Shown one piece after another: positions 274-9,732 of a stretch of DNA of 32,000 bases (positions are counted from its first letter, which is position 1; every line of letters begins with the position of its first letter). This stretch comes from Edaphobacter aggregans. Lineage in GTDB: Bacteria; Acidobacteriota; Terriglobia; Terriglobales; Acidobacteriaceae. The DNA is taken from the NCBI RefSeq assembly GCF_003945235.1, contig NZ_RSDW01000001.1, positions 1,680,001 through 1,712,000 on the forward strand, written 5' to 3'. Below the pieces are notes generated by a model, which saw nothing but the letters and a program-made list of their open reading frames with translations, searched no databases and was not told where the DNA came from. The translations under genes and the position numbers were made by a program.

Positions 274-681
274 ATGGCGGAGGTTTCGAAGAATCGGCTT
301 TGGTGGATCAACGCAACGGGGCTGATGTTCGCGATCCTGCAGAGTGCCTGCGCTGCGGTTCTGGCGGTCAGCGGCTTCCGCGTCTTGATTGGCTTAAGCT
401 CGCTGGCGATCGCTGCGGGAACGAGTGCTCCGGCAAAAGGATTTCACGCGGATGCCATCCGCATCCCGATGATGTTGTTCGCTTTGATCGGTGCGCTCGC
501 GAATCTCTACATGCTGTGGCGAGTACGGTCGCTACGAGCGCGGCCTGCTTCGCAATGGCGGATGCAACCGTTGTCTCCTACGAAGAAGCGCTCCGAACGA
601 CTGCAATTCGCGCTGGCGATTCTGACGTTGCTGGTACTGGCTGCGGAGTGGATCACGCACCCGATGATGCATCACGGCTAA
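274..681 (+). CDS. Hypothetical integral membrane protein (about 4 hydrophobic segments)
   Basis: 135-aa ORF with several hydrophobic stretches (LMFAILQSACAAVLAVSGF, MMLFALIGALANLYMLW, FALAILTLLVLAAEW). AGGAG-like sequence (aaaggagctaagg) upstream of the ATG. The competing 300-749 ORF in another frame is Arg/Cys-rich and looks non-coding. Confidence 0.6.
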   Translation: MAEVSKNRLWWINATGLMFAILQSACAAVLAVSGFRVLIGLSSLAIAAGTSAPAKGFHADAIRIPMMLFALIGALANLYMLWRVRSLRARPASQWRMQPLSPTKKRSERLQFALAILTLLVLAAEWITHPMMHHG

Positions 682-956
682 AGAGACGAATCGCTGCCAT
701 CGGTTGGAACAGCGGGCGGCCCGGCAAGAATGGCCTCGGTCAGGCGTGAGTGAAGACGTTCGCTGTAGCCGAGCGGAAGTTCGAAGATGCGGTCGTCAGC
801 AGTAAGAATCAGAATGTTTCGTGTCGAATCAAGAACAGCTGAGCAGATCTCGCAATGCTCAAGGTGGCGCTCTACATCGGCGCGAGTCGCGGTATCAAGC
901 GTGTTGTCCAAATAGCCGGAGATCTGGTCCCAGACGTGACTGCAGTTCAGAACCAT
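678..956 (-). CDS. Soluble zinc-binding (ZAS / zf-HC2) anti-sigma factor
   Basis: 92 aa with no transmembrane segment. Carries the H-x3-C-x2-C motif (H31 LEH C35 EI C38) plus an upstream C5. GAAGGAG lies 8 nt before the ATG. The start overlaps the stop of the upstream ECF sigma gene by 10 nt. Confidence 0.8.
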   Translation of the reverse strand: MVLNCSHVWDQISGYLDNTLDTATRADVERHLEHCEICSAVLDSTRNILILTADDRIFELPLGYSERLHSRLTEAILAGPPAVPTDGSDSSL

Positions 957-1567
957 GAGAAACTCCTTCGCGTTTCTGGCACTGCACTCTTCAGCTGCGG
1001 CGCGAGACTTTTCTGCAGCATCAGGCGAGCACGATGAAGCCGCATCTTAACCGAAGCAACCGTGATGCCGAGAGTTTCGGCGGTCTCCTGCACGTTGCGG
1101 TCTTCCATTTCACGCAGCACGAAGACCTCGCGGTAGGCCAGCGGAAGCGCCATCAAAGCCTGGCGGATGAGCGAGCGGACCTCCTGGCGTTCAAGAGCCT
1201 GCGAGGGAATCTCGCGCCAGTCAGTAAGTTGCATGGGGGTGACTTTGCCTTCGCGGTCGTCGTCGAGCGAATCGGTGAGCCCGGGCTGGATGCGGCGAAG
1301 GCGGCCGCGAGCCTCGTTGAGGACGATGCTGATGAGCCATGTACTGAAGCGGGCTTCGGCACGGAAGCGCCCGAGGTTTCGGTATGCCTTGAGGAATGCA
1401 TCCTGCGCGGCATCCTCAGCCTCAGCCTCATTGTGGAGCAGCGAAAGCGCCATGAGGTAAACGCTGCGCTCGTGCGGACGGATCAACTCGTGAAAGAGTT
1501 CGTGGTCGCCGGAGAGGATGTCCGCTATCATCCTGGGTTCGTCCCTGTCTCTAGCCGGTAACTGCAT
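947..1567 (-). CDS. ECF-type RNA polymerase sigma-70 family factor
   Basis: Region 2 (DAAQDAFLKAYRNLGRFRAEARFSTWLISIVLNEARGRLRR) and region 4 HTH (ETAETLGITVASVKMRLHRARLMLQ) are recognisable. GGGAGA lies 4-5 nt upstream of the ATG at 1567. An alternative start at 1531 (MIADIL) is possible. Confidence 0.9.
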   Translation of the reverse strand: MQLPARDRDEPRMIADILSGDHELFHELIRPHERSVYLMALSLLHNEAEAEDAAQDAFLKAYRNLGRFRAEARFSTWLISIVLNEARGRLRRIQPGLTDSLDDDREGKVTPMQLTDWREIPSQALERQEVRSLIRQALMALPLAYREVFVLREMEDRNVQETAETLGITVASVKMRLHRARLMLQKSLAPQLKSAVPETRRSFSWF

Positions 1568-2066
1568 CGTTCTCCCAATGCTCTTTGGTGCGGGTCTCGG
1601 AAGTTCGGAGCTTCTTGGCGATGAGAGCGTCCAGCGAGAAGAGGCCCGGGCCGAAGGCCAGAATCATGATCGCAGCGAAGAGAAAGGTGTAGGGATCGGC
1701 TCCGTAAAATTTGCTGGGGTTACTGAAGATCGAGAAGAGTGCCTCGCGATCGGATGTCCAGTATGCAACAAACATCGATCCTGTGAGCAGGAACGCGATG
1801 GGGCGCGAAGCCAGTCCAAGGATAAGCAAGATTCCACCGAAGAATTCAAGCCCGGATACGAAGTGGGCGCTTAACGCCGGGAATGGGATATTGAGTGAAG
1901 TAAAAAAGTCGACGGTACGCGCCTGATTATGCAGCTTACCCCAACCGGTTTGCACGAACTGCCAGCCCCAGTAGAGTCGTACAGCGAGCAGCAGGGGCGA
2001 GCAGAGCTTTTCCGCGACCTTGCAAAAAGCGGCGTACCAAGCGGCGAGACGATGGATGAGCTTCAT
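1551..2066 (-). CDS. DoxX family membrane protein (BufD-like position in the operon)
   Basis: 171 aa with four hydrophobic helices and a DoxX-like sequence (LLLAVRLYWGWQFVQTGWGKL... GLEFFGGILLILGLASR). Its ATG overlaps the upstream gene's stop as ATGA (2063-2066). Confidence 0.88.
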   Translation of the reverse strand: MKLIHRLAAWYAAFCKVAEKLCSPLLLAVRLYWGWQFVQTGWGKLHNQARTVDFFTSLNIPFPALSAHFVSGLEFFGGILLILGLASRPIAFLLTGSMFVAYWTSDREALFSIFSNPSKFYGADPYTFLFAAIMILAFGPGLFSLDALIAKKLRTSETRTKEHWENDAVTG

Positions 2067-2965
2067 AAGGTCTCCGTGGTGGCGCGTGGTGCGCAGAGCC
2101 AGCCCATCTGCATCCAGTGATGGAAAGCGGATTGGATGATGGCTGGACGATCGGATTCCGGCGTTGTGCTATCGGCGAAGGCGGCTTCGATCGCTTCGCC
2201 GAGAGATTGACCCTCTTCGAGAGATTGAAGCAGCAGAAAGTCTTCGCGCGAGAGACGCTTGTAATAGACGGTATCGTCATGACGGTGAATGGCGAGATAG
2301 ATCTGCTGCTGCGACGGCCGCCGAGAACGCGTGCGTCGAACGACATGAATACCGACGGCATTGCTGGCCTGCGTGCCAGATGGCTGCGAGCCTTCGCGCA
2401 CGGCAAGTAGAGCGTCGTCGACGGCATAGGGCGCGGTCAACAGGCGCAGGTAGGGTTGCAGGGTGATGTGGGAGTCGCCGTCGAGGCTGGCGATCTCGTC
2501 AGCAGCAAGAGGTTCGCGGCTCTCATTGTCGAAGGCCTCGATGTGCGCCCATTCGAGAGCGGCCATCGCAATTGCGGATTCCGTGTTTGGAGCCGTGTAT
2601 TGAGGATTCTCCTTAAGCCAATCGACAAGTGAGGAGCCCAGATTACGCAATGTGAAGGAGCGCGAGGGGTGAGCCTCAAGATAGGCACGCATCAGCGCTT
2701 GAAATTTGCGGCTACCGACGATGGATTTGAGGCCAGGAAAGTCCTCCTCGAACGAGGAAAAAAGACGGAACCAGTATTGCCGGTTGTAAATCTCCAGGCG
2801 CTCAAACGACGTCAGCCGATCGTTGGGACGGATGAATGCGCCAGCCTCATCCGCAACCGAGGGGCACGAGGCATCACGCTTGCGCATCTGCTCGTTGAAT
2901 GTGAGCGGCCGCATAACGGCAGCAGCCATGCGTCTCTGAAGAAGATGAAGATCGGAGCCGATCAT
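2063..2965 (-). CDS. DUF2063 domain protein (MbnC/BufC-like partner of the DUF692 enzyme)
   Basis: LEIYNRQYWFRLFSSFEEDFPGLKSIVGSRKFQALMRAYLEAHPSRSFTLRNLG matches the characteristic DUF2063 N-terminal region. I chose the ATG at 2965, which forms an ATGA overlap with the DUF692 stop (2962-2965). The 105-nt upstream extension in the ORF track would overlap the DUF692 gene. Confidence 0.85.
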   Translation of the reverse strand: MIGSDLHLLQRRMAAAVMRPLTFNEQMRKRDASCPSVADEAGAFIRPNDRLTSFERLEIYNRQYWFRLFSSFEEDFPGLKSIVGSRKFQALMRAYLEAHPSRSFTLRNLGSSLVDWLKENPQYTAPNTESAIAMAALEWAHIEAFDNESREPLAADEIASLDGDSHITLQPYLRLLTAPYAVDDALLAVREGSQPSGTQASNAVGIHVVRRTRSRRPSQQQIYLAIHRHDDTVYYKRLSREDFLLLQSLEEGQSLGEAIEAAFADSTTPESDRPAIIQSAFHHWMQMGWLCAPRATTETL

Positions 2966-3825
2966 GCGGTCACCGCGAGAGGAGCCGCCTGCTCGTGTCT
3001 TCGCAAATAACGGTTGGCCTTCAGGGCTTCGGCATGGACCTCCTCGAAGGACGGGATGGAATCGTCCCACTCGAGCAGCGTCGCAGTCGGCCCGCAGCGT
3101 TCAATCGCGCGAGCATAGAGTCCCCACACTGGATCTAGAACCGGATGGTCGTGCGTGTCGAGAATGTACTTCTCAAACTTTGAGTGGCCGGCGATGTGGA
3201 TCTGGGCGACGCGATCTGCTGGTATGGCCTCAACATACTGGCGCGGGTTGAAGTTATGGTTCTGGGAGGAGACATAGATGTTGTTCACATCAAGCAATAT
3301 GCCGCAATCGGCCTGCTCGACGACCTCGTTGAGGAACTCCCACTCCGTCATCTCGGAGACATGAAACTCCGCGTAGCTGCTGACGTTTTCGACTGCTATG
3401 GGTACTTCAAGAAAGTCCTGGGCCTGTCGAATCCTTTCGGCAGTGTTACGTGCGGCCTCGAAGGTGTAGGGCATCGGAAGAAGGTCGTGAGTATAGGTGC
3501 CATCCACGCTGCCCCAGCACAGATGGTCGGAGAGCCACGGAGTTCCAGTGCGACGGACAAGAGCCTTTAGGCGGCGCAGATGCTCACGCGACAATGGTTC
3601 AGCCGAGCCGAAGTACATCGAGACACCGTGCTGTACGACGCGGTATTGGTCAAGAATACTGTCGAGAACGGTAAGCGGACGGCCACCGTCGATCATGTAG
3701 TTCTCGGAGATAATCTCGAACCAATCGACGACGGGCTTCTTCTCGAGAATGTGACGATAATGAGGAACACGAAGACCAATGCCGACTCCGTATTCCGTAA
3801 AACCGTTGAAACGATTCGCTGGCAT
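2962..3825 (-). CDS. DUF692 / MNIO (multinuclear non-heme iron oxidase; MbnB/TglH/ChrH/BufB family) RiPP-modifying enzyme
   Basis: Typical DUF692 blocks are present: GVGIGLR, WFEIISENYM, HGVSMYFGS, PWLSDHLCW, ENVSSY, LLDVNNIYVS, QIHIAGH, TLLEWD. I prefer the ATG at 3825 (GAGG 6 nt upstream) over the TTG at 3831. Confidence 0.95.
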   Translation of the reverse strand: MPANRFNGFTEYGVGIGLRVPHYRHILEKKPVVDWFEIISENYMIDGGRPLTVLDSILDQYRVVQHGVSMYFGSAEPLSREHLRRLKALVRRTGTPWLSDHLCWGSVDGTYTHDLLPMPYTFEAARNTAERIRQAQDFLEVPIAVENVSSYAEFHVSEMTEWEFLNEVVEQADCGILLDVNNIYVSSQNHNFNPRQYVEAIPADRVAQIHIAGHSKFEKYILDTHDHPVLDPVWGLYARAIERCGPTATLLEWDDSIPSFEEVHAEALKANRYLRRHEQAAPLAVTA

Positions 3826-3859
3826 GTGCAACCTCGGAAATCAACTGGAGAAAGGGAGT

Positions 3860-3893
3860 GCTCCGCCGCTCGGGTGGAGTGACGCGGCGGAGC
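3860..3893 (-). promoter_or_regulatory. Intercistronic GC-rich stem-loop between precursor gene and DUF692 gene
   Basis: Perfect 10-bp inverted repeat GCTCCGCCGC (3860-3869) / GCGGCGGAGC (3884-3893) with a 14-nt loop. On the transcribed strand it is followed by ACTCCCTTTCTCC. It sits 9 nt after the precursor stop and about 30 nt before the DUF692 RBS. Confidence 0.55.
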
Positions 3894-3901
3894 GCTGAGG
3901 T

Positions 3902-4195
3902 TTACGCCGCGGGTGGCTTGGAGCCATCAGTTGCGCAGCCGCCCTTACCCTTGCAGCTGTTCTTGCCTTTGCAGCCATTGTCGCTGGTCTTGCAACCGCC
4001 CTTGCCCTTGCAGTCGTTTTTGCCTTTACAGGAGTGCTTGTCCTTATCGGCGGCCACGAAAGAGGCCGAGGAGAAGGCAAGCTGCCCGAACTGCGCACCG
4101 TTGTGGGTGGTGGATGCATGGATCGGTGTTGCGGAACCACTGAGCAGTCCGGTGACGGCTGCACTCAACATCATTGCTTTCATGGACGTCTTCAT
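3902..4195 (-). CDS. Sec-exported six-cysteine Lys/Gly-rich small protein; candidate RiPP precursor (bufferin-like, six-Cys type)
   Basis: 97 aa from the ATG at 4195 (AGGAG 8 nt upstream; the track start at 4201 is a TTG). Signal peptide MKTSMKAMMLSAAVTGLLSGSATPIHA. The C-terminal core is HS-CKGKNDCKGKGGC-KTSDNG-CKGKNSCKGKGGC-ATDGSKPPAA. It is the first gene of the DUF692 operon. Confidence 0.85.
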   Translation of the reverse strand: MKTSMKAMMLSAAVTGLLSGSATPIHASTTHNGAQFGQLAFSSASFVAADKDKHSCKGKNDCKGKGGCKTSDNGCKGKNSCKGKGGCATDGSKPPAA

Positions 4196-4216
4196 TCGCA
4201 AATCTCCTTTAAGGTG

Positions 4217-4288
4217 ATGGTTCTGTTACATGGTTATGTTACGTTCCATCTGGCCCGTTAGATTGCGGGCGTAAAAAACGGTAACAGA
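4217..4288. repeat. Tandem 13-mers plus an inverted copy in the divergent promoter region
   Basis: ATGGTTCTGTTAC (4217-4229) is immediately followed by ATGGTTATGTTAC (4230-4242), with 1 mismatch. GTAACAGA (4281-4288) is the reverse complement of TCTGTTAC (4222-4229). All three lie between the precursor RBS and the divergent 4365 gene. Confidence 0.6.
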
Positions 4289-4364: not shown

Positions 4365-5984
4365 GTGATTGATATTCCGCAGGAAAGAGCCGAAAGGGTT
4401 CCGCGACGCAAGCGTGGTGTGTGGGGTTGGATTGCAATCGTTTTATTGTTCGCAGTCATTGTTTTATTCGGGACGATAGAGTGGATGATCCACCGCGCAG
4501 AGCCCATTTTGAAGGGCCGCGTCATCGAAACGTTGAGCACTCGTTTCGAGAGTCGTGTGGAGATGGACAATTTTCACGTTTCACCGCTCAAGGGCCTGGA
4601 GGTTTCAGGAGACGGCCTGCGAATCTATCCAACCGATGAGGTGGTGGCCGCTGGAGCGAAAGATCCGTTGATCTCGCTGGGCCATTTTTCATTTCATGTA
4701 AATCTGTCTGGACTGTTTCAGAAACCGATGCATGTAGGTACGGTGCACGTCACCGATATGGCGATCACCATCCCGCCGCGCGAGATGCGCCAGCAGGGGC
4801 CGAAGTCAGAAAAGCGGTTCGGCAAGATCAAAATCGTCGTCGACGAGATCGTCTGCGATGGCTCGAAGCTAATGATCGAGACTGCCAAGCCCGACAAGGA
4901 TCCGAAGGAATTCGAACTCAGCCACATTGTGATGCGTAACGTTGGGCCGAACGATCCATGGCAGTATGACGCGACGCTGGTCAACGCAATTCCAAAGGGC
5001 GATATTCACGCAGTAGGAACGTTCGGCCCGTGGGTCAATGAGAGCCCTGGCGATTCGACCGTGACCGGGAAATACACGTTCGAGCACGCTGACCTGAATA
5101 CGATCAAAGGTATCGGCGGGATGCTGTCTTCCACGGGCGAGTTCAGCGGACAGTTGAACAGGATCGTTGTGGATGGAACAACGGATACGCCGGATTTCTC
5201 GCTGGACACGGCAAACCACAAGATGCCGCTACACACGAAATTCCATGCGATTGTGGACGGAACTAGCGGCGACACGTATCTCCAGCCAGTGGATGCAAAG
5301 CTGCGCGGTTCGGAGTTTACCTGCAACGGCGCCATCATCAACGTGAAGGGCAAAGGGCACATTATCGACCTGGATGTGAATGTCCCTAATGGCCGCATAC
5401 AGGACTTTCTGGAACTAGCGATCAAGACACAGCCGGTCATCATGACAGGACGCCTTGCGATGAAGACGAAACTGCATATCCGCCCGGGGGGGGAGAGCGT
5501 CACACAAAGGATCGGATTGAAGGGCGGCTTTACACTGCGGGCAATTCACTTCACGAATCCAGAAGTGCAGGACAAAGTAGATATGCTGAGTCTCCGCGCG
5601 CGTGGTGAGGCGAAAGAGGCCAAGGCAGGCGCGGAGGATGTGAACTCGCAGATGCGCGGACAGTTTGTCATGCAGAGTGGCAGGCTGAGCTTTAGCCAAC
5701 TGAATTACACATTGCCGGGCGCAGACGTGAACCTGGCCGGTGTGTACTCTCTGGATGGAGACGAATTTGACTTCACCGGTAAGGTACGCACGAAGGCGGC
5801 GCTATCGAATATGGTGGCGACCTGGTGGAAGTCATGGCTGCTGAAGCCCGTCGACCCCTTCTTCAAAAAGAATGGCGCCGGCGCAGAAATTCCCGTCAAG
5901 ATTACTGGAACAAAGGGAGCGCCGAAGTTCGGCCTGGATCTACACCATAAGGATAAGAGCAACGAAGCAAGCCCCACCGAGTAG
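4365..5984 (+). CDS. N-terminally membrane-anchored large periplasmic protein, AsmA-like / DUF748-like (family tentative)
   Basis: 539 aa with a GTG start. Basic N-terminus followed by one TM helix (WIAIVLLFAVIVLFGTIEWMI), then a long beta-rich, Cys-poor domain. This layout resembles AsmA/TamB-type proteins. The family assignment is from memory only. Confidence 0.7.
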   Translation: MIDIPQERAERVPRRKRGVWGWIAIVLLFAVIVLFGTIEWMIHRAEPILKGRVIETLSTRFESRVEMDNFHVSPLKGLEVSGDGLRIYPTDEVVAAGAKDPLISLGHFSFHVNLSGLFQKPMHVGTVHVTDMAITIPPREMRQQGPKSEKRFGKIKIVVDEIVCDGSKLMIETAKPDKDPKEFELSHIVMRNVGPNDPWQYDATLVNAIPKGDIHAVGTFGPWVNESPGDSTVTGKYTFEHADLNTIKGIGGMLSSTGEFSGQLNRIVVDGTTDTPDFSLDTANHKMPLHTKFHAIVDGTSGDTYLQPVDAKLRGSEFTCNGAIINVKGKGHIIDLDVNVPNGRIQDFLELAIKTQPVIMTGRLAMKTKLHIRPGGESVTQRIGLKGGFTLRAIHFTNPEVQDKVDMLSLRARGEAKEAKAGAEDVNSQMRGQFVMQSGRLSFSQLNYTLPGADVNLAGVYSLDGDEFDFTGKVRTKAALSNMVATWWKSWLLKPVDPFFKKNGAGAEIPVKITGTKGAPKFGLDLHHKDKSNEASPTE

Positions 5985-6032: not shown

Positions 6033-6821
6033 TTAGAAGCTGTTGTCGTCGTTGCCAGAGTCGAAGCCACCGTCGGAGCTGTCACCAAAATCAGCAGAAT
6101 CGTCGGCAAAATTATCTGCCGTGTCGTTGGTGTCGTCGCTGCCCATCAGGCTATCTCCGTGATCATCGTTGTCCACCGCCTCAGAGAAGCGCGATTCGCC
6201 GCGACGATCTTCGATGTCTGGGGAGAGATGCCCGGAGTGCTCCGAAGGAGTGGCGTCGCCGTAGTAGTTGTTGACGATCTCTTCGGGGCGGTTCGATTCG
6301 CCAAACCCGCCAAAGCCCGAGCCATAACCTCCACCATGACCGAAGCCATGCATAAGGCTCTCAATGCCTTCAAAAGCCAGTGCGCCGGCTGCAACGCCGG
6401 TAGCAGTCTGCAAAGCCGAGCGGAGAAAGCCGCCAGACTGAGGCGCGCCGTATCCTGGAACGGATGGCTGCCCCCCGTAGACAACGGGAGTGTACTGCGG
6501 CTGAGCAGGTAGCGGAGGCGGGGGGGCCGGGCGTGAGGGCTCGTCGTCGCGGCCGAGCAGGTTGCCGAGGAAGCTCGTCGCATGTTTCGGCTGCTGTCGA
6601 ACGGCATCAAGTTGGCCGCGTGCGTCGGCGAGTTGTTTTTGCGCCTGATCGAGCGCGTACTGCTGCACGAGCACAGTTTGAGCGAGGATGTAGAGCGCAT
6701 CCGGATTACGTCCCAGGGTCTGCTGCAGAAACTGCGCGGCGTCAGGATCCTTCTCCTGAAGTTGGGTGCTGTTGATGCGCTCAGTGAGGTCTTGAAGCAT
6801 CTGCTGTTCTTGCGCGGTCAT
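6033..6821 (-). CDS. DUF2076 domain protein with Gly-rich middle and poly-acidic tail
   Basis: The N-terminus MTAQEQQMLQDLTERINSTQLQEKDPDAAQFLQQTLGRNPDALYILAQTVLVQQYALDQAQKQL is typical of DUF2076. GAGGAG RBS upstream. C-terminal D/N/S/G-rich tail. Confidence 0.8.
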   Translation of the reverse strand: MTAQEQQMLQDLTERINSTQLQEKDPDAAQFLQQTLGRNPDALYILAQTVLVQQYALDQAQKQLADARGQLDAVRQQPKHATSFLGNLLGRDDEPSRPAPPPPLPAQPQYTPVVYGGQPSVPGYGAPQSGGFLRSALQTATGVAAGALAFEGIESLMHGFGHGGGYGSGFGGFGESNRPEEIVNNYYGDATPSEHSGHLSPDIEDRRGESRFSEAVDNDDHGDSLMGSDDTNDTADNFADDSADFGDSSDGGFDSGNDDNSF

Positions 6822-6916: not shown

Positions 6917-8158
<1,242 letters not shown>

Positions 8159-8208
8159 GGGCTCTCCAGCGATGCAACAGCAACGGCAAAGCAAAGACGA
8201 TTTGCGCC

Positions 8209-9732
8209 TTAGTTGAAGCCTCTTCGGGTACGGTTGCGAGCAGCCTCGTCGCGTTCTATCTCACGTTCACGCATGCGCTCGGCATATTGACTGGCTTGAT
8301 CGACGCGCTGTTTCTTTTCCGCCGCAGTGAAGCTGCGCTCCTCGGTACGGCTGATGCGCTTATGGGCGGTCATGCCTTCAAGAAGAAACTCGGCCGCACT
8401 CACGGCAACCTCAGGCGACGACTTACCGTTGATCTTCAGCGGCGACAACTTTTCAAACAGGCCCTGAATCTGTTGCAGCTCAGCAAGCGAGCCTGAAGAG
8501 GGTTGCGTATCGTTGAGCTGAACAGTGCCACCAAGATTGAACCACTGCTCGATCTGTTGCGTGTCGGTACCGGCAAAGTACTTGTCGAAGATGCCCGCGA
8601 CACTGGTGCGAATAATCTCTCGGATGACCGTATCGGCACCGCGCATCTCGCCCTCATACTCTAGCTCGATCTTGCCTGTGATGCCAGGCAGCGCAGCGTA
8701 AATGTCGCCAACGCGGGGGACGACGAGCTCCTCGTCATGAAGCAACGCACGGCGTTCCGCATTCGAAAGCACCAGCTCCATCGTGCTGATGGGCAGCCTC
8801 TGCGAGACTCCCGAACGCTTATCGACCTTCTTATCCTCACGTGCGGAGAATGCGATCTGCTCGATGATCTGTCGGATGTAATGTGGGATCTCGATATTGG
8901 ACGCGGGCCGCTCGGACCATGCCTCCTGCGCTGTAATGCTAATGCCTTCCTCGACATCCTCGGGATAGTGCGTGCGAATCTCCGAGCCGATGCGGTCCTT
9001 AAGCGGGGTAACGATCTTACCGCGTGCAGTGTAGTCCTCAGGGTTGGCGCTGAACACGATGGCAACATCAAGCGGCAAGCGCACGGGGTAGCCCTTAATC
9101 TGCACATCGCCCTCCTGCATGATGTTGAAGAGCGCAACCTGAATCTTGCCGGCAAGGTCGGGGAGTTCGTTGATCGCGAAGATGCCACGATTGGCGCGAG
9201 GTAGCAGGCCATAGTGCATGGTCAGTTCAGACCCAAGATCCTGATTGCTGCGCGCCGCTTTAATCGGGTCGATATCGCCCACAAGGTCGGCCACCGTCAC
9301 ATCAGGCGTGGCAAGCTTTTCGACAAAGCGGTCATCCGGCGTAAGCCAAGCGATCGGCGTGTCGTCTCCCATCTTCGCAATCAGGTCGCGCGCAAACTTC
9401 GAGATAGGAGCGTACGGGTTGTCGCGGGTTTCCGCACCCGCAACATAGGGAGTCGCAGGATCAAGCAGCGTAGTCAGAGACCGAAGAATGCGCGACTTCG
9501 CCTGTCCGCGAAGACCGAGCAGAATGAAATTGTGGCGCGAGAGGACAGCATTCACAATCTGCGGAACCACCGTGTCCTGGTATCCGACAATCCCCGGAAA
9601 GAGCGTTTCCTTCGACCGCAGCTTGGCAATCAGATTCTCGCGAAGCTCGTCTTTGACGCTGCGGGCAAGGCGTTGGGGAGTAAACTCGCTGGCCCGGAGG
9701 GCGCCTAATGTGGTCGGAAGAGGAGTCGCCAT
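8209..9732 (-). CDS. ChlI/BchI-like AAA+ ATPase (often annotated as Mg-chelatase-like or sigma-54-interaction-domain protein)
   Basis: Collinear with BchI/ChlI: LLGLRGQAKSR (P-loop position), RGIFAINELPDL (Walker B position), VQIKGYPVRLPLDVAIVFSANPEDY, PLKDRIG. Long C-terminal extension. Confidence 0.88.
   Translation of the reverse strand: MATPLPTTLGALRASEFTPQRLARSVKDELRENLIAKLRSKETLFPGIVGYQDTVVPQIVNAVLSRHNFILLGLRGQAKSRILRSLTTLLDPATPYVAGAETRDNPYAPISKFARDLIAKMGDDTPIAWLTPDDRFVEKLATPDVTVADLVGDIDPIKAARSNQDLGSELTMHYGLLPRANRGIFAINELPDLAGKIQVALFNIMQEGDVQIKGYPVRLPLDVAIVFSANPEDYTARGKIVTPLKDRIGSEIRTHYPEDVEEGISITAQEAWSERPASNIEIPHYIRQIIEQIAFSAREDKKVDKRSGVSQRLPISTMELVLSNAERRALLHDEELVVPRVGDIYAALPGITGKIELEYEGEMRGADTVIREIIRTSVAGIFDKYFAGTDTQQIEQWFNLGGTVQLNDTQPSSGSLAELQQIQGLFEKLSPLKINGKSSPEVAVSAAEFLLEGMTAHKRISRTEERSFTAAEKKQRVDQASQYAERMREREIERDEAARNRTRRGFN

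Follow-up and report, generated by a model that had tools for sequence, protein, structure and literature searches.

Bufferins, described by Leprevost et al. in PNAS in 2024 (PMC11626156), and the related captophorins are among the largest families of peptides that are made by ribosomes and altered after translation (RiPPs); they act in the defence against copper stress, and experiments have so far dealt with proteobacterial members only. The precursor BufA2 of Caulobacter vibrioides (CCNA_03001) founds the BUF_6/12Cys family, whose members carry 6 or 12 conserved Cys behind a Sec signal peptide. In the mature Buf2, the four central Cys are each lighter by 4 Da (5-thiooxazoles), CysI and CysVI are unmodified and have been proposed to form a disulfide, and bufferin precursors are cleaved at the Sec site. 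The Caulobacter buf2 operon is induced by copper and protects against it (PMC11626156). More recently, Gadgil et al. (2026) named the whole class captophorins and defined a 'Cys-Lys' precursor group that includes BufA2. In the enzymes of this group, from the MNIO family, the residue after the catalytic Asp (the FonB-F250 position) is Asp and not Phe, and in a model this residue contacts a substrate Lys; 5-thiooxazoles are installed by every MNIO-PME1 pair tested (PMC13097082). A six-Cys precursor beside DUF692 and DUF2063 genes had already been noticed in Antarctic soil metagenomes in 2021 (Waschulin et al.), and a census table of 2025 lists WP_011521333.1 (Koribacter versatilis) and WP_015897739.1 (Acidobacterium capsulatum) as Buf_6-12Cys, adjoining MNIO, DUF2063 and DoxX (PMC12452194). 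We found no paper that describes the acidobacterial form on its own. Here we analyze one such form, encoded by an open reading frame (ORF) at positions 3902..4195, minus strand, of a stretch of 32,000 nucleotides from the genome of Edaphobacter aggregans (contig NZ_RSDW01000001.1, positions 1,680,001 to 1,712,000), hereafter the window. This ORF is most likely the precursor gene of a bufferin-2-type ('Cys-Lys captophorin') copper peptide, in a tail-less and fully repetitive sub-form found in Terriglobia.

The bufA2-like gene (bufA below) encodes 97 amino acids between an ATG at 4195 and a TAA at 3902-3904. It was recognised from homology, conservation and codon differences. A GGAG at 4204-4207 lies 8 nt 5' of this ATG, which we preferred over an alternative TTG at 4201 because the latter is too near the GGAG. 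The translation reads MKTSMKAMMLSAAVTGLLSGSATPIHA-STTHNGAQFGQLAFSSASFVAADKDKHS-CKGKNDCKGKGGC-KTSDNG-CKGKNSCKGKGGC-ATDGSKPPAA. Residues 1-27 (MKTSMKAMMLSAAVTGLLSGSATPIHA; 4115..4195, minus strand) form a predicted Sec signal peptide, judged by eye from a basic n-region, a hydrophobic h-region and I-H-A ahead of Ser28, and the three regions and the putative site between I-H-A and Ser are conserved in the alignment of the window precursor with its relatives (alignment A1). They are followed by a Cys-free and poorly conserved spacer (residues 28-55; 4031..4114, minus strand), variable over residues 28-50 and closed by a conserved DKDKH. All six Cys then lie in an array (residues 56-87; 3935..4030, minus strand) made of two C-K-G-x-N-x-C-K-G-x-G-G-C triads separated by KTSDNG, with a Cys spacing of 5,5,6,5,5. 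A preliminary description of this DNA had given the array exactly these limits, with 9 Lys and 9 Gly among its 32 residues and two near-identical 13-residue units, and we find the same: the units at 3992-4030 and 3935-3973 share 12 of 13 amino acids. The mature region carries 12 Lys and Arg against 5 Asp and Glu. In alignment A1 the array and the flanking DKDKH and ATDGSK are near-invariant, and the second of these flanks, at the C-terminal end, has the look of a degenerate KTSDNG linker.

The same description had seen the duplication in the DNA as well. This is correct for the 13-residue units, which are identical at 33 of 39 nt, but it does not extend to the full 57-nt module, where the two copies agree at 39 of 57 nt and Tandem Repeats Finder makes no call. 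The duplication of the module is therefore old rather than recent. The DNA identity between the two units is largely imposed by their identical amino acids and by codon bias, and the similarity of the modules is maintained at the protein level.

The Cys frame links the precursor to a described family. C-x5-C-x5-C-x6-C-x5-C is common to the whole BufA2 family, and the window precursor fits the canonical spacing at its first five Cys (5,5,6,5); the sixth comes at +5 in a GG-C-A-T context and not in a C-x3-G-G tail. For comparison, canonical BufA2 genes were taken beside MNIOs on plasmids of Legionella, Asticcacaulis and Thiothrix. Homologues of the Asticcacaulis protein, 84/89 of which have the spacing 5,5,6,5,12, give the consensus VHCYGVNSCKGTADCKTxxxxCKGxNxCKGHGFKxxxxxxCLxxGG. 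When the window group (A1) was compared with canonical BufA2 (A3) by hhalign, the match reached 98% (E=2.1e-13, 38 columns) and placed Cys1-5 on CysI-V, ending at residue 85, ahead of Cys6. The NCBIfam model NF050166 ('BufA2 family periplasmic bufferin-type metallophore') also matches the precursor, below its curated threshold, with E=1.9e-9. Lys follows five of the six Cys in more than 96% of 211 homologues. The 'Cys-Lys' captophorin group is marked by several Cys-Lys motifs in a Cys-rich precursor whose gene adjoins an MNIO-PME1 pair, and the window precursor shares these traits. The adjoining MNIO reads TLLEWDDSIP where 3BWW, of the Lys-Cys type, reads TLLERDFNFP, and the BufB2 enzymes of Legionella and Asticcacaulis read E-R-D-D; we infer that the second Asp in the E-W-D-D of the window enzyme corresponds to the FonB-F250 / BufB2-D251 position. 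The earlier idea that each CKGK unit is an MNIO recognition site agrees with this Asp and with the published Cys-Lys group.

The preliminary description had also set the array apart from methanobactin and from DUF2282-type cores. This much stands, as no Pfam family, PF10048 included, matches the window precursor, and its MNIO scores 39.3 bits against the MbnB model (cut-off 325); what does not stand is the separation from bufferins as such, given the homology to BufA2. The novelty implied for the array is lost for the same reason, since it belongs to the described BufA2 or Buf_6/12Cys family, and the suggested variation of '6 versus 12 Cys' is the published name of that family. The Korobacter and Acidobacterium loci in our set encode a peptide of the same symmetric type as the window. 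Since the census already counts these acidobacterial relatives as Buf2, the family assignment is not new.

Two observations on the canonical family came out of this comparison. On plasmid pASDW145_1 of Asticcacaulis sp. DW145 (L082, 1-5780), a Buf1 operon (DUF2282-MNIO-DUF2063-DoxX) and a Buf2 operon (BufA2-MNIO-DUF2063-sigma-NrsF-NrsF) lie back to back and divergent, the latter being a canonical Buf2 cluster with sigma and NrsF genes. In addition, PMC11626156 gives CysI of Buf2 as Cys24 and CysVI as Cys50. A spacing of 5,5,6,5,12 that ends at Cys50 leads to positions 12/18/24/31/37/50, in which Cys24 would be the third Cys; this may reflect a numbering slip in that paper or a differing Caulobacter peptide.

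The gene is widespread and under selection. A search of 5.8 billion proteins returned 6664 precursor homologues at E<=1e-3, the nearest in Edaphobacter, Silvibacterium and Terracidiphilus, and an exhaustive profile search gave 1639 clusters (50% identity) at E<=1e-3, 767 of them at E<=1e-10. The spacing 5,5,6,5,5 is exact in 107 of the 150 top representatives. In a scan of genomes, at least 600 stretches matched and at least 582 were confirmed; the locus statistics given here come from the best 80 loci, all from Terriglobia (Acidobacteriaceae, Bryobacterales, Korobacter and Acidoferrales). The Cys array is intact and in frame in 80/80 of these, and hence the ORF is conserved at the protein level, with no case (0/80) of frame-shift or loss beside a persisting DUF692 gene. 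Relative to the window precursor, codon differences are 1006 synonymous and 396 non-synonymous, and nucleotide differences at codon positions 1, 2 and 3 number 300, 220 and 1173. The reading frame of bufA is thus under purifying selection, and the conservation of the precursor is far beyond chance. Two overlapping ORFs (3858-4217, plus strand; 3841-4164, minus strand) were rejected as artefacts of GC-rich sequence because the variation sits on the third positions of the bufA frame.

The number of modules varies among relatives, and more widely than the six or twelve Cys previously suggested: when homologous ORFs were aligned and counted, we found forms with 6, 9, 12 and 15 Cys, a length polymorphism of two to five triads. 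Of the 120 nearest homologues, 106 carry six Cys, 4 have nine (three tandem modules) and 4 have twelve, and the 150 cluster representatives comprise 119 with two triads, 3 with three, 24 with four and 2 with five. The four-triad forms have either short linkers of 6-8 residues or whole-domain duplications with linkers of 22-35 residues, and a twelve-Cys form is likewise followed by MNIO and DUF2063 genes. One nine-Cys protein (P0001) is encoded at a locus syntenic with the window (VWA, DUF2076, DUF748, precursor, MNIO, DUF2063, DoxX), with about 76% nucleotide identity in the operon. In P0001 the third module matches the second at 56 of 57 nt (Tandem Repeats Finder period 57, 2.8 copies); this close relative gained it by a recent tandem duplication. 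What evolves as a unit is the 19-residue module of triad plus linker. Some four-triad (12-Cys) homologues (P0187, P0213, P0232, P0238, P0257, P0263 and members of their clusters) have twin-arginine-like signal peptides (RRxFxK), in some cases also with a lipobox Cys; Sec is the only export route mentioned in PMC11626156 and PMC12452194.

The precursor gene is the first of a six-gene operon on the minus strand, bufA-bufB-bufC-bufD followed by genes of an extracytoplasmic function (ECF) sigma factor and a zinc-binding anti-sigma (ZAS) factor. The product of bufB (2962..3825) is the MNIO (DUF692) maturase with the E-W-D-D motif; it scores 353 bits on NF050167 (cut-off 310) and 1.7e-108 on PF05114. 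Its stop overlaps the ATG of bufC (2063..2965) in an ATGA. BufC is the DUF2063 partner (PME1; PF09836), with a C-terminal domain like NGO1945_C or a RiPP recognition element. The third downstream gene, bufD (1551..2066), encodes a membrane protein of the DoxX family (PF07681), and its end overlaps by 17 nt with the ECF sigma factor gene (947..1567; sigma-70 regions 2 and 4). The anti-sigma factor (678..956) is a soluble protein of 92 amino acids that matches zf-HC2 (2.9e-11) and, below the cut-off, the RsrA model (9.8e-8). With Cys5, an H30-x3-C34-x2-C37 motif and no transmembrane segment, its sequence is like that of the redox-sensing RsrA. The sigma and ZAS anti-sigma genes (678-1567) follow at the end of the bufferin operon and are coupled to it in translation. 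In the 80 loci, the gene order precursor, MNIO, DUF2063, DoxX is kept in 80, 77 and 75 cases for the three downstream genes in turn, the missing cases being contig ends. The earlier reading of the ORF as a RiPP precursor upstream of a DUF692-DUF2063 pair is thereby borne out. Homologues of the sigma and anti-sigma factors occur in 40 and 37 of the 80 loci, after DoxX or upstream of the precursor.

The surroundings of the operon are those of an ordinary chromosome. The bufA operon lies on the chromosome in a single copy, with housekeeping genes around it, and the remainder of the window encodes HrcA, DnaJ, Dxr, RseP, a Mrp/NUBPL ATPase, a protein with a von Willebrand factor A (VWA) domain and a DUF2076 protein. 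Divergent from the operon and upstream of it lies a gene for a 539-residue protein with a weak match to DUF748 (4365-5984, plus strand). Beyond it are three genes on the minus strand (6033-6821, 6917-8194 and 8209-9732); after DUF748, this upstream block encodes a DUF2076 protein whose tail is rich in Gly and Asp, a protein with a VWA domain and a 507-residue protein without a Pfam match. The DUF748 gene stands beside the operon in the nearest relatives only (6/80 loci, plus L084, the locus of P0001).

Two candidate regulatory elements flank bufA. Upstream, 91 nt 5' of the precursor ATG, is a bipartite promoter-like motif, TGTTACC-N15-AATCTAA (4258..4286, minus strand), a candidate for an ECF-type -35/-10 pair, whose version in the relatives (loci L001-L080) is TGTAACC-N15-16-ACTCCTA-like. 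A first guess, GTWACC-N13-17-CAATC, was dropped when it matched the closest relative only, and the refined motif was obtained by aligning upstream regions on the TGTAAC box. In the form TGTWACY-N14-17-..TC..A it matches 36 times on the two strands of the 80 loci (1.79 Mb), where shuffled sequences would lead one to expect 2.8, and 31 of the 36 lie at most 320 nt upstream of a precursor gene on the same strand. Downstream, between the precursor stop and the MNIO start, is a stable GC-rich hairpin of 10 bp (GCTCCGCCGC-N14-GCGGCGGAGC; 3860..3895, minus strand; -31.3 kcal/mol, z -2.7). The intergenic regions between precursor and MNIO in 79 loci have a median fold z of -3.2, with 71% below -2. This hairpin may be an attenuator or an mRNA stabiliser that sets the ratio of precursor to enzyme. 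Between the promoter-like motif and the ribosome-binding site there is also a 13-nt direct repeat (GTAACATAACCAT / GTAACAGAACCAT on the coding strand; 4217..4242, minus strand; Tandem Repeats Finder period 13, 2 copies, 92% matches), shared with the closest relative (L001), which could be an operator or an element of the 5' untranslated region. A sigma-70 promoter scan found no match in the scanned sequence, terminator predictions were at chance level, and Rfam had no match in the window.

By analogy with the characterised members of the family, we consider it probable (roughly 0.8) that the pathway consists of thiooxazole conversion, Sec export and sequestration of copper in the periplasm. 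In the cytoplasm, the MNIO-DUF2063 heterodimer would use O2 and an iron cofactor to turn the Cys in the C-K-G motifs into 5-thiooxazoles, each with a loss of 4 Da, and the Lys behind each Cys would contact the Asp that comes after the catalytic Asp of the enzyme. The Sec signal peptide would then drive export, with cleavage after IHA, and the Lys/Gly-rich product of about 70 residues would be retained in the periplasm, where it would bind copper via the N and S donors of the thiooxazoles. As to expression, the hairpin that follows bufA probably shifts the balance of mRNA from enzyme to precursor, and the TGTAACC-type promoter and the ECF/ZAS pair probably put the operon under the control of thiol-reactive or metal stress. 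The hairpin, the conserved motif and the RsrA-like anti-sigma factor thus together suggest stress-responsive ECF control in which the precursor transcript is favoured over that of the enzyme.

Less certain is how many of the six Cys would be modified. The array might keep the canonical Buf2 arrangement, in which Cys56 and Cys87 would form a disulfide, the four central Cys would become thiooxazoles and the product would be a stapled and ordered metal site. The column-by-column alignment of Cys1-5 with canonical CysI-V speaks for this, as do the unmodified CysI and CysVI of Caulobacter Buf2 (PMC11626156), the conserved His ahead of Cys1, which canonical BufA2 also has, and Cys6 itself, the only Cys without a following Lys (Ala takes this place in 194/211 sequences). 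However, the contexts of the outer Cys differ. Cys1 stands in C-K-G-x-N, as the modified CysIV of the canonical form does, whereas canonical CysI stands in C-Y-G-V-N; Cys6 stands in G-G-C-A-T, which resembles the modified canonical CysIII (D-C-A/K-T); and the CysVI tail is absent. Variants with 9 and 15 Cys and linkers of 6-8 residues also misfit one disulfide per six Cys, and the core has nothing hydrophobic to pack: between Cys1 and the C-terminus, hydrophobic residues make up 1.2% of the symmetric form against 15% of canonical BufA2, which argues against a packed fold in the window type. AlphaFold2 gave a model of the window precursor type without secondary structure (pLDDT 49.4, pTM 0.19, from a 26-sequence alignment), and a canonical BufA2 control at equal alignment depth showed strands and a helix around CysI and CysVI (pLDDT 57.4, pTM 0.39), a predicted structure that agrees with the published description of the fold. 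We hold the canonical arrangement to be possible, though doubtful. The missing tail, the different contexts of CysI and CysVI, the near absence of hydrophobic residues and the pure 19-residue modules suggest instead a flexible product, with most or all of the six Cys acting as substrates. To the proposal that most or all Cys are modified and no structural disulfide is formed, to which Cys contexts, composition and odd module numbers point, we give somewhat less than even odds. Its fullest version is more tentative, and we offer it as a conjecture: the product would be a flexible polycationic poly-thiooxazole peptide with every Cys modified, in which each 19-residue module would be an autonomous copper site, so that the number of modules (2-5, varied by 57-nt tandem duplications) would set copper capacity. 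This architecture would bridge the folded Buf1 and Buf2 and the EGKCG repeat types, with a thiol- or copper-sensing ZAS/ECF pair acting on the TGTAACC promoter.

Readings that leave the bufferin pathway altogether are unlikely. The Cys-rich, aromatic-free and Lys/Gly-rich composition would suit a secreted metallothionein-like peptide that is left unmodified and binds metal through free thiolates, the MNIO acting on some other substrate, and direct thiolate coordination was raised by Waschulin et al. for six-Cys peptides linked to DUF692. Yet the MNIO gene follows immediately downstream in 80/80 loci, its product scores above the BufB equivalog cut-off and carries the residue of Cys-Lys specificity, and all characterised MNIO-PME1 systems act on the Cys-rich peptide encoded beside them; free thiols would moreover be expected to form disulfides in the oxidising periplasm. 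We therefore regard this reading as very improbable. Even less credit can be given to a cationic, Cys-rich secreted antimicrobial (a bacteriocin or defensin-like peptide) matured by the MNIO, which the net positive charge, the predicted signal peptide and the RiPP gene cluster might bring to mind: the operon contains no immunity gene, dedicated transporter or protease, the locus is single-copy and chromosomal, the cores are near-invariant across hundreds of Terriglobia species, unlike those of diversifying bacteriocins, and the relatives act in copper stress.

Some results weigh against the interpretation of the locus as a bufferin 2 sub-form with a flexible product and ECF control. The match of the precursor to NF050166 (37.6 bits) is under the 60-bit cut-off and covers only profile positions 19-65 of 79, whereas controls from Legionella, Asticcacaulis and Thiothrix reach 80-100 bits over positions 2-78, and multi-module relatives pass 60 bits only through summed stretches. 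The contrast between the AlphaFold2 models is weak, both being low in confidence (pLDDT 49 vs 57). As to regulation, the promoter-like motif occurs upstream of only 1 of 25 separately placed sigma genes, which leaves its dependence on the ECF factor putative, half of the 80 loci have no sigma gene within the flank examined, and the census places sigma and anti-sigma genes outside Buf2 clusters (PMC12452194).

Public records name the acidobacterial precursors 'hypothetical', and the same is true of ten distant representatives, because these proteins do not reach the curated BufA2 cut-off. If the sub-form, which the curated models miss, were recognised, this annotation would be corrected. It occurs in more than 580 of the species genomes scanned, and the best 80 loci all belong to Terriglobia, dominant soil bacteria. 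Its natural series of 2, 3, 4 and 5 modules, including a near-isogenic pair with 2 versus 3, could be used to study the number of Cys modified by an MNIO, the need for a disulfide staple and the scaling of copper stoichiometry with module number. The locus is nevertheless an incremental extension of a known system and not a new kind of system.

Among the known systems, methanobactin (MbnA/MbnB/MbnC) is likewise a Cys-containing, copper-binding RiPP modified by an MNIO. However, it has a leader peptide instead of a signal peptide, MbnC instead of a DUF2063 partner and oxazolone-thioamide groups, and it is secreted for copper acquisition. Bufferin 1 (BufA1, DUF2282/PF10048) is closer, with the same bufABCD operon logic and enzyme family. 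It, too, is a thiooxazole peptide that binds copper in the periplasm, and sigma and anti-sigma genes occur in its clusters. It differs in being a folded mini-protein with four Cys and a CysI-CysIV disulfide, and its clusters have the membrane protein NrsF as anti-sigma factor in place of a soluble ZAS.

The peptides of the Buf_EGKCG type, or 'Lys-Cys' captophorins (oxazolin, fontiphorin and gonophorin; HvfA, FonA and NgoA), resemble the window precursor: they are Cys peptides rich in Lys and Gly, of low complexity and built from repeats whose number varies (PMC11252979, PMC13097082). They also lack a hydrophobic core and frequently come with DoxX. In these copper-binding peptides the MNIO-PME1 pair modifies every repeat Cys, with seven 5-thiooxazoles in fontiphorin (PMC11252979, PMC13097082). 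Their repeats, however, are of 5 or 17 residues and carry E-G-K-C-G, whereas the window has C-K-G in triad modules of 19 residues and neither EGKCG nor K-C motifs in its precursor sequence. Their enzymes have Phe after the catalytic Asp (E-R-D-F in 3BWW) where the window MNIO has Asp, and the latter reaches 255.9 bits on the HvfB model (cut-off 360). FonBC leaves substrates with a charged residue after Cys unprocessed (PMC13097082).

Bufferin 2 remains the closest system. It shares with the window a precursor, with a signal peptide that in the window is a predicted one, directly upstream of a BufB-type MNIO and its DUF2063 partner, the C-K-G motifs, and the existence of both 6-Cys and 12-Cys forms; the relatives of the window add variants with three and five triads. 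The window operon includes DoxX, which is missing from Caulobacter buf2, and about half of the window-type loci have an ECF sigma/ZAS pair, of which the census reports none in Buf2 clusters. As read from the sequences, the actual difference from canonical BufA2 lies at the end of the peptide: the hydrophobic 'G-F-K...' tail with its C-L-x-x-G-G around CysVI is absent, and a second CKGKGGC triad is completed in its place, with the sixth Cys 5 residues after the fifth instead of 12.

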